From assembly GCA_033549025.1 (NCBI GenBank), contig JAWSUS010000006.1, positions 32,001 to 96,000 of the forward strand: a DNA stretch of 64,000 bases, read 5' to 3'. This DNA comes from Desulfuromonadales bacterium. GTDB lineage: Bacteria; Desulfobacterota; Desulfuromonadia; Desulfuromonadales; SZUA-540. Within the stretch, counting starts at the first letter, position 1. The number at the start of each line of letters is the position of its first letter. The position numbers were made by a program, and so were the translations under genes. The notes beneath the pieces were generated by a model that was not told the DNA's origin, did not search any database, and saw only the letters and a list, made by a program, of their open reading frames with translations. This document shows positions 62,748 to 64,000 of the stretch, one piece after another.

Positions 62748-63347
62748 TCACGGAGATGATTTCTGCATGAGGACCGTACTGAATTCATCCAGCATTCGGT
62801 TGCGGATAACTTGACAGCCGAGCCGTTCGTACTTCTGGCGAACGTCATAGTTATATTCCCAGAGCATCCCAGACAATAGAATATGAGCGCCTGGAGCCGC
62901 TTTTGGCACAAGCGCGTCAGCAACGGCGAGGAGAATGTCGCCATAGATGTTCGCCAGAATGAGGTCAAAAGATCCGGCGGCAACCTGGTCCAGAGTGCCG
63001 CACAGGTGATCAATTTTATCAACGACGCCGTTGAGATGACTGTGGTGTTGGCAGGTGGCGACCGCCGCTGGATCGATATCGACACAAAGTGCGTGGGATG
63101 CCCCGAGTTTGAGGGCCGCGATGGCCAGAATGCCGGTGCCGCTGCCCAAATCGAGCAGGGTTTTTCCGGACAGATCGGGTAGGTCCTCCAGGATTTCCAG
63201 GCAACTGGCGGTGGTTTCATGTTCGCCCGATCCGAAGGCTCCGGAAGCCATAACCAAGGGCAGACGGTCCTCCTGAACTGGGGTATCGTCAGGGGGGTGA
63301 ATACGAAAACGGTGTCCTACGGTAAAGGGGGCGTACTCGCGTCCCAT
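62748..63347 (-). CDS. Short PrmA-like SAM-dependent methyltransferase (no N-terminal substrate domain)
   Basis: AFGSGEHETTASCL, LDLGSGTGILAIAALKLGA, DIDP, ANI, LSG; about 199 aa; AAAGGA SD. Confidence 0.85.
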   Translation of the reverse strand: MGREYAPFTVGHRFRIHPPDDTPVQEDRLPLVMASGAFGSGEHETTASCLEILEDLPDLSGKTLLDLGSGTGILAIAALKLGASHALCVDIDPAAVATCQHHSHLNGVVDKIDHLCGTLDQVAAGSFDLILANIYGDILLAVADALVPKAAPGAHILLSGMLWEYNYDVRQKYERLGCQVIRNRMLDEFSTVLMQKSSP

Positions 63348-63376
63348 AAAGGAATATCCTTTCAAGGTGATCCAAT

Positions 63377-64000
63377 TCAGGTCACACAGATAAAGTCGTG
63401 CTGATCCTTGAAGCCGTTTCGATCAGCCCACTGACGGATTTGCTGCCGAGCGCCGGCGGCACCAACCGTAATGAGCATTTTGCCTTGATCCGTCCGAAGT
63501 TCTGTGGGGGCGATGACCGGGGCCCCATGGATGGTCTGGCCCACTTTGCGAGGATCGATATCCACCCAGCGTGCCACGTGAATTCCCTGGCGCAGCAGAA
63601 CCTTCCGCCAGGCTTTGCCTTCGAGCCCGGCGCCCCAGAGAGTAACCTCCCGCTGGCCCCTTAAGTAGTCCTGACAGAGATAGTGGATTTTGCAGTCCCG
63701 CATAGCGGTCAGCGTACAGTTCGCGGCCGTACGGGTCAGTCTGTCGGGGCGGTCTCGCCAGTAGAAGAGGGTGCCGGGCAGGCGCGCAAAGCGGGCACCG
63801 GCGCGGATAAGACGAAGCCAGAGATCGTAGTCTTCCGCCCAGGGCAGCGCACGATAGCCGCCCGCCTCCAGGACCGCCTGACGTCGGAACATGACGCTGG
63901 GATGGGCCAGGGGGGACTCGACGTAGCGGTCGCGCTGAATATCGTCATGCGTGAGCAGGCTGTTTTGCCAGGCCTCGTAGGTTTTCATCCCCTCCGAAAG
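63377..64000 (-). CDS. GT2 glycosyltransferase with C-terminal Rossmann-like domain (QTGAL/B3GNTL1-like); 5' part outside the window
   Basis: Frame stays open to base 64000 (LSEG before MKTY); AHPSVMFRR, AEDYDLWLR, WGAGLEGK, VDIDPRKVG. Confidence 0.85.
   Translation of the reverse strand, partial: LSEGMKTYEAWQNSLLTHDDIQRDRYVESPLAHPSVMFRRQAVLEAGGYRALPWAEDYDLWLRLIRAGARFARLPGTLFYWRDRPDRLTRTAANCTLTAMRDCKIHYLCQDYLRGQREVTLWGAGLEGKAWRKVLLRQGIHVARWVDIDPRKVGQTIHGAPVIAPTELRTDQGKMLITVGAAGARQQIRQWADRNGFKDQHDFICVT

Follow-up and report, generated by a model that had tools for sequence, protein, structure and literature searches.

The window analysed here is a stretch of 64,000 nucleotides (G000:C6:32001-96000, G000 being the source genome) that ends inside a minus-strand gene for a GT2 glycosyltransferase. 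The preliminary description of this DNA had read its last open reading frame as the C-terminal ~207 aa of a GT2 enzyme carrying a Rossmann-like domain, and this reading was correct: the frame runs from 64000 to 63377 and encodes 207 aa. The gene continues for 387 bases past the window end, where its first 129 codons occupy G000:C6:96001-96387, and its ATG start overlaps the stop codon of the upstream gene. An O-antigen or capsule cluster on that side had been named in advance as evidence against a role in tRNA modification; the upstream gene encodes an AEC-family transporter instead. The downstream neighbor does encode a PrmA-like methyltransferase, as described before. The features are as follows.

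G000:C6:95377-96387, minus strand: complete QTGAL-like GT2 gene (P0001), 336 aa, intact.
63377..64000, minus strand: C-terminal 207 aa (residues 130-336) of the QTGAL-like GT2; open reading frame with the stop included.
63897..63970, minus strand: family signature W140, N142, P159, H162, and P163 in the acceptor half of the GT-A domain.
63830..63835, minus strand: ED motif (E185-D186), invariant in 33/33 bacterial and 31/31 eukaryotic rows.
63380..63712, minus strand: linker helix and C-terminal Rossmann-like half domain (C-domain, approximately residues 226-336).
62748..63365, minus strand: PrmA-like SAM methyltransferase, 205 aa, without the N-terminal PrmA part, 11 bases from the stop of the GT gene.

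Pfam assigns residues 7-173 of the 336-aa protein to GT2 (E 1e-30) and gives a weak, sub-threshold CoA_binding match at residues 247-322, and no NCBIfam model reached its cut-off. In the AlphaFold model (pLDDT 94.6), a linker helix stands between a GT-A domain and a small β-α-β domain. The DxD motif is formed by D92/D94/D95. The C-domain contains a glycine-rich loop (residues 251-257) and D276/D278/K281, which are common to the queuosine (Q)-tRNA galactosyltransferase QTGAL (B3GNTL1), and it has a more distant likeness to the nucleotide-binding domains of Rex, PglD/PerB, and WbaP. A strongly hydrophobic stretch of 19 residues is absent from the protein and from 104 relatives, indicating that there is no membrane segment. 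The GT2 protein is thus a soluble GT-A enzyme with DxD and ED motifs, and it is predicted to be stand-alone and cytoplasmic. Its nearest named homologues are from Desulfuromonadales. Promoter and terminator scans at the locus stayed at chance level, and contigs from the RNA libraries of two sediment studies cover the gene partially and at low depth, showing neither transcription nor a joint transcript.

When the C-terminal 203 aa were used as the query, 37 of 301 genomes of the same phylum were matched. Twenty-nine of the matches covered nearly the whole query, four its first 140 residues (the one inspected is full length), and four were short matches to generic GT2s; the 33 carriers in this phylum have one copy each. 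A motif derived from the carrier alignment detected 25/30 family loci and 0/50 generic GT2 loci. Across GTDB, this motif occurred in at least 120 stretches, 119 of which are family members, and the record titles point to Myxococcota, Gemmatimonadota, Chloroflexota, Verrucomicrobiota, Bacteroidota, Acidobacteriota, Planctomycetota, Nitrospirota, Pseudomonadota, and one Firmicute. Many clusters of equal length in the ESM Atlas are named GT2 and nothing more, and members bear the database label "glycosyltransferase involved in cell wall biosynthesis." The family is widespread over many phyla, patchy, and unnamed, and has no Pfam or NCBIfam model of its own; it is single-copy and of near-constant length in monoderm and diderm phyla alike. 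Phage records gave no match to the family, and plasmid records gave one weak match, to the C-domain. A scan of viral contigs returned 50 loci, all of them generic GT2s that were reused as controls, and a BFVD search likewise returned generic GT2s only. Among longer proteins, 11 matches were found, none from a eukaryote. An apparent fusion to UvrA (P0126) is probably a miscalled join of neighbors. The GT lies behind a 2-thiouracil desulfurase domain in P0373 and behind a methyltransferase domain in P0124, each a single protein that could also be a miscalled join.

The likeness to QTGAL suggested by the preliminary description goes beyond chance and holds over both domains. The eight bacterial motifs quoted there are all present and in the same order; the human B3GNTL1 counterparts given for them were compared with the orthologues of other animals. 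The eukaryotic profile comprised 31 sequences, of which 23 were database proteins (most named QTGAL or B3GNTL1) and 8 came from metagenome contigs. Metagenomes scanned with a short motif yielded 31 loci, of which 29 are QTGAL-like and several seem to be interrupted by introns. Database homologues of one metagenome QTGAL, from many animals, carry the name queuosine-tRNA galactosyltransferase or B3GNTL1 (53-62% identity), with no human protein among the 120 matches listed. In hhalign, the profile of 33 bacterial sequences aligned with the eukaryotic one at a probability of 100 (E 9.6e-47, 320 columns, 21% identity), collinearly from residue 3 to 335, and the C-domain profiles alone aligned at a probability of 98 (E 3e-13, 103 columns). 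With single sequences the signal is lower: the C-domain of the GT2 protein reached 37 against that of QTGAL, whereas the other Rossmann domains of G000 stayed below 1, and the QTGAL profile scored it at 13 bits. In the predicted model of an echinoderm QTGAL (pLDDT 92.2), helices and strands follow one another as in that of the GT2 protein, except that the animal C-domain has one or two additional short helices. Searches of the PDB by sequence, profile, and fold gave generic GT2s and C-domain matches of the Rex, PglD, and WbaP types and no QTGAL structure.

In the reciprocal search, the best match of the QTGAL profile in G000 was the GT2 gene (83 bits; next GT2, 28 bits), and it was the sole significant match when the N-terminal half of the profile was removed. 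At E 0.001, a threshold at which the G000 gene itself was missed, this truncated profile matched 29 times in 26 of the 301 genomes. The best 12 matches, and all 12 that extended past profile position 130, belong to the family, and 15 are short matches to generic GT2s. The QTGAL C-domain profile scored 59/104 family proteins versus 0/53 generic GT2s. The full-length profile was rejected as a discriminator: it did not separate the family from generic GT2s (medians of 81 versus 71 bits), nor could the two be separated with it over the 301 genomes.

A comparison of 104 family, 121 eukaryotic, and 44 generic GT2 rows identified P126, W140, N142, W251, G254, D276, D278, and K281 as residues common to the family and QTGAL and rare in generic GT2s. 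From the family signature, P159 and P163 are also common to QTGAL. For W140 and N142, the family counts carry some circularity, since that motif had served to find most of the rows; in the 33 rows found without it, W140 is likewise invariant. Two divergent sequences on the QTGAL side, L217 and P0363, retain the bacterial spacing in the acceptor loop. In a quick tree of 83 rows, unfinished and with two short rows dropped, generic GT2s stood apart from the family plus QTGAL (SH-aLRT 89). A careful GT-A tree of a 42-row subset, from which six generic rows were omitted as near-duplicates or long branches, gave the family as a clade (100/99) and left QTGAL, on a long branch, unplaced among generic GT2s; joining QTGAL to a generic subgroup was not rejected (AU p 0.497). 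A search of cluster representatives with a mixed profile, crowded by multidomain GT2s, showed no intermediates among the best 150. Since the catalytic-domain trees are indecisive, the special relationship rests on the shared architecture and the signature residues. The two groups share the two-domain layout, near-equal length, the DxD, ED, and W-x-N motifs, the C-terminal end, and the glycine-rich loop and D-x-D-x-x-K of the C-domain, and both are soluble and single-copy. The bacterial family differs in its shorter loops, its own H162 and arginine-rich stretch, and its more basic character (median pI 8.2 versus 6.5). Homology over both domains is supported by the sequence comparisons, and the bacterial family is best filed as QTGAL-like, not as QTGAL.

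Synthesis of Q in the source genome had been raised beforehand as a point on which a Q-related function depends, and the genome has the whole de novo pathway. G000 contains queC, queD, an adjoining queE-like gene, queF, two tgt genes, queA, queG, and gluQ, and its tRNAs with a GUN anticodon are those for Tyr, Asp, Asn, and His. A search of G000 for QueH gave no match, and a search of the window found no tRNA gene. The two tgt genes, at C6:113180-114313 and C1:192213-193301 outside the window, are 56% identical and both score above the curated cut-off; several genomes of the same class also have two. In a set of 80 carriers selected to be widely spread (50 from the 79 loci found with the motif in GTDB and 30 from the 33 carriers of the same phylum), 79 have tgt and 77 have queA, and the only one without tgt is a MAG that has queA. 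Over all carriers examined, tgt was found in 90/91. The result from Chloroflexota looked contrary at first. There, 12 of 201 genomes carry the GT gene, with tgt in 12/12 and queA in 2/12, compared with queA in 146/201 overall; these tallies count G376, G508, and G511 as GT-negative and queA-positive. No carrier occurs among the 23 Chloroflexota that have neither tgt nor queA, which is not significant (p 0.37) because one or the other is common anyway (178/201). Within the 55 queA-negative Chloroflexota, tgt was found in 10/10 carriers versus 22/45 noncarriers. In the five queA-negative carriers tested, queG was not found.

The queA-negative Chloroflexota carriers, 10 from the sample and one Oscillochloris genome (G347, locus L154), have a distinctive TGT. 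In all 11, the pocket loop is shortened to GGSLG, with Leu replacing the pocket Cys. The motif GG[LS][AS]G is described as typical of queuine-salvaging TGTs in the available text of PMC11570991; GGSLG is no literal fit to this consensus, and the accessible part of the supplement models it as leaving room for queuine, at a distance of 4.0 Å. These carriers therefore probably salvage queuine, judging from the pocket sequence. With a GGSLG TGT, no queA, and probable salvage, the GT gene appears to follow tgt and not the de novo steps. The 11 carriers look like one lineage and consequently count as approximately one event, and the GT gene is absent from five relatives that share this TGT type.

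The lineage (genomes G347, G374, G414, G423, G450, G459, G475, G491, G515, G531, and G547; loci L251-L259 and L261-L267) shows further peculiarities. Its TGT without queA combines a 20-residue insertion with the GGSLG pocket. A second, divergent TGT paralogue is present in eight of its genomes, two of which have it in pieces, and at four fetched loci this paralogue is followed by a gene for an FmrO-like 16S rRNA methyltransferase. A gene with the QTMAN_N domain occurs in 11/11 of the queA-negative carriers, and the set recalls the two-subunit TGT and both Q-glycosyltransferases of animals. QTMAN_N also accompanies the GT family in 14/61 other carriers. It is found in 43 of the 301 genomes of G000's own phylum, without enrichment in carriers (7/33 versus 36/268), and was not found in G000. 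Among cultured carriers of the GT gene, Geomonas edaphica Red53 (L151) also has QTMAN_N and gluQ; others are Geothermobacter ehrlichii (P0069) and Sorangium or Minicystis strains (L083, L156, L160), where QTMAN_N was not found in the two tested. Seven que queries gave no match within the fetched flanks of the QTMAN_N loci L294-L305 and L312-L322. Mutual exclusion of QTMAN-like genes and GluQ was considered and did not hold (GluQ above cut-off in 6/40 versus 15/40). The Q_salvage family (PF10343) matched nowhere, controls included, and is uninformative.

Here, we propose, with confidence evenly balanced, that the bacterial GT2 family may attach a hexose to Q34 of tRNAs with a GUN anticodon. The enzyme would be a stand-alone, cytoplasmic, inverting GT2 and the bacterial counterpart of QTGAL. 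By homology, its N-terminal half, with the DxD motif at residues 92-95, would bind a metal ion and a UDP-type hexose donor, the sugar of which is likely, not certainly, galactose. D186, the presumed catalytic base according to established GT2 chemistry, would deprotonate a hydroxyl group of the cyclopentene diol of queuosine 34, by analogy in tRNA-Tyr, while W140, N142, and the C-domain may position the anticodon loop. The product would be a β-glycoside, hexosyl-Q. QTGAL itself uses UDP-galactose and forms a β link to the homoallylic hydroxyl of Q34, its substrate being tRNA-Tyr, according to the available text of a preprint (bioRxiv 10.64898/2026.06.28.735034) and of PMC12518689; the former describes the reaction as an SN2-type step, and the latter reports selectivity for this hydroxyl. 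In mosquitoes, loss of QTGAL is linked to loss of galQ, according to the available text of PMC11705514, which gives m/z 572.22 for hexosyl-Q. The wider implication, that glycosylated Q occurs in bacteria and is older than animals, with hexosyl-Q formed by this family in many phyla and an animal-like set in one Chloroflexota lineage, is held tentatively, at slightly less than even confidence.

Two other enzymes acting on Q serve for comparison. GluQ-RS (YadB), a synthetase paralogue whose gene is present in G000, resembles the proposed enzyme in acting on the cyclopentene diol of Q34 and has no homology to it. QTMAN/GTDC1 (Pfam QTMAN_N, PF12038), the other animal Q-glycosyltransferase, also has patchy bacterial homologues. 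It belongs to an unrelated GT4-type family, and the animal enzyme uses GDP-mannose to form an α link on tRNA-Asp; its bacterial homologues are already named in Pfam, unlike the QTGAL-like family. GluQ-RS transfers glutamate to the allylic hydroxyl of Q, as stated in the available text of PMC10690763.

GT2 acceptors change easily. A serious alternative, to which we give roughly a third of our confidence, is that the family is a true relative of QTGAL acting on another cytoplasmic acceptor, Q specificity having arisen only in eukaryotes. Candidates include another modified base of tRNA or rRNA, a free nucleoside, a small diol, a protein, or a lipid head group. The 21% identity to QTGAL, the long branch of the latter, and the well-supported separate clade of the bacterial family (100/99) are in line with such a change, as are the residues after the ED motif, where the bacteria have three conserved arginines and QTGAL has Y-R-Y-H. 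The fusions P0373 and P0124 point to nucleic-acid chemistry generally, not to Q. Linkage to que genes is not beyond chance either: a que gene lies within the fetched flanks of 2/79 loci, against a rough expectation of one. These are L126, with tgt two genes upstream, and L158, with a queE-like gene directly downstream (274 bits; cut-off 300); in G000, queA-tgt lies 16 kb from the GT gene. On the other hand, both groups retain W140/N142 and the C-domain in full, and tgt accompanies the gene even where queA and (5/5 tested) queG were not found, which argues for Q as the acceptor.

That the gene encodes an orphan envelope glycosyltransferase (for lipopolysaccharide, capsule, exopolysaccharide, glycolipid, or glycoprotein) standing away from its cluster is unlikely. 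Every GT2 relative found with a solved structure acts on glycans or small sugars, and the C-domain resembles those of the sugar enzymes WbaP and PglD. SpsA, TarS/TarP, chondroitin synthase, EpsE, and TuaG share the GT-A domain (VIA Z ~23, Foldseek TM ~0.5), and for none of these envelope-type enzymes does a single sequence match take in the C-domain. The NCBIfam models of envelope GT2s all stay far under their cut-offs on the protein (EpsE, EpsD, TuaG, WcaA, and PgaC; EpsE, 102 versus 450), and the single copy and nearly uniform length of the gene, in monoderm as in diderm phyla, also argue against an envelope role. Envelope GT2s usually lie in gene clusters. Flanks of up to 6 kb at 79 loci showed no neighbor conserved across phyla. 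Of 146 heuristically called first neighbors, 142 were scanned and represent mixed housekeeping genes, with no flippase or polymerase family reported among them. A GT4, GT2, epimerase, or CpsB-like gene lies in the flank of 12/79 loci, including four Chloroflexota loci (L082, L099, L134, and L145) with a GT4-like gene next on the same strand; 67 have none among the neighbors already recognized, to which these queries were limited. Pairs of sugar genes occur at 3/79 loci and triples at none. At a few unrelated loci the first neighbor is tRNA-related, namely trmL (L103, L106), tsaC/sua5 (L108), a ttuA-like gene (L121), and aat (L160). With mixed neighbors and few sugar genes, the context therefore speaks against an envelope cluster and weakly for tRNA. 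It is highly improbable that two common domains were joined independently in bacteria and eukaryotes to give a generic likeness: the catalytic-domain tree does not place QTGAL and the single C-domain scores weakly (hhalign 37; 13 bits), but the alignment is collinear to the last residues, other Rossmann domains of G000 score below 1 in the same comparison, and the W/N/P signature is shared and bridged by L217 and P0363.

QTGAL was reportedly described by Zhao et al. in 2023 (Cell). That paper or its supplements may mention bacterial homologues; no published report of a bacterial QTGAL homologue or of bacterial glycosyl-Q was found in the parts of the literature available. Sugar-modified Q is assigned to vertebrates and glutamyl-Q to bacteria only in the available text of PMC10690763. 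A 2026 review of bacterial RNA modifications does not mention glycosyl, galQ, manQ, or QTGAL in the 300,000 characters available (PMC13602947), and in the accessible text of both sources galactosyl- and mannosyl-queuosine are treated as animal and glutamyl-Q as bacterial. If the family glycosylates Q, a new tRNA modification would extend across many bacterial phyla, and the animal enzyme would have a bacterial counterpart. A small soluble enzyme would then be at hand for the first structure of the QTGAL type, and the purpose of Q glycosylation could be approached by bacterial genetics. If the acceptor differs from Q, the family would still show what QTGAL evolved from.

Some further observations concern the surroundings of the gene. 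The AEC transporter and the PrmA-like gene were considered as conserved partners and rejected, recurring at one other locus only (L053 among L053-L161). G000 has a second PrmA-like match at C10:70959-71549 (34% identity), which may be its ordinary prmA. In Gemmatimonadota (L090, L097, L114, L119, L139, L149, and others), the GT gene directly follows uvrA, often just before gyrA. Within the window, the minus strand between 55529 and 62680 encodes two tandem TetR-like regulators and then an RND efflux set (membrane fusion protein, pump, and outer-membrane channel), as named from the translations.
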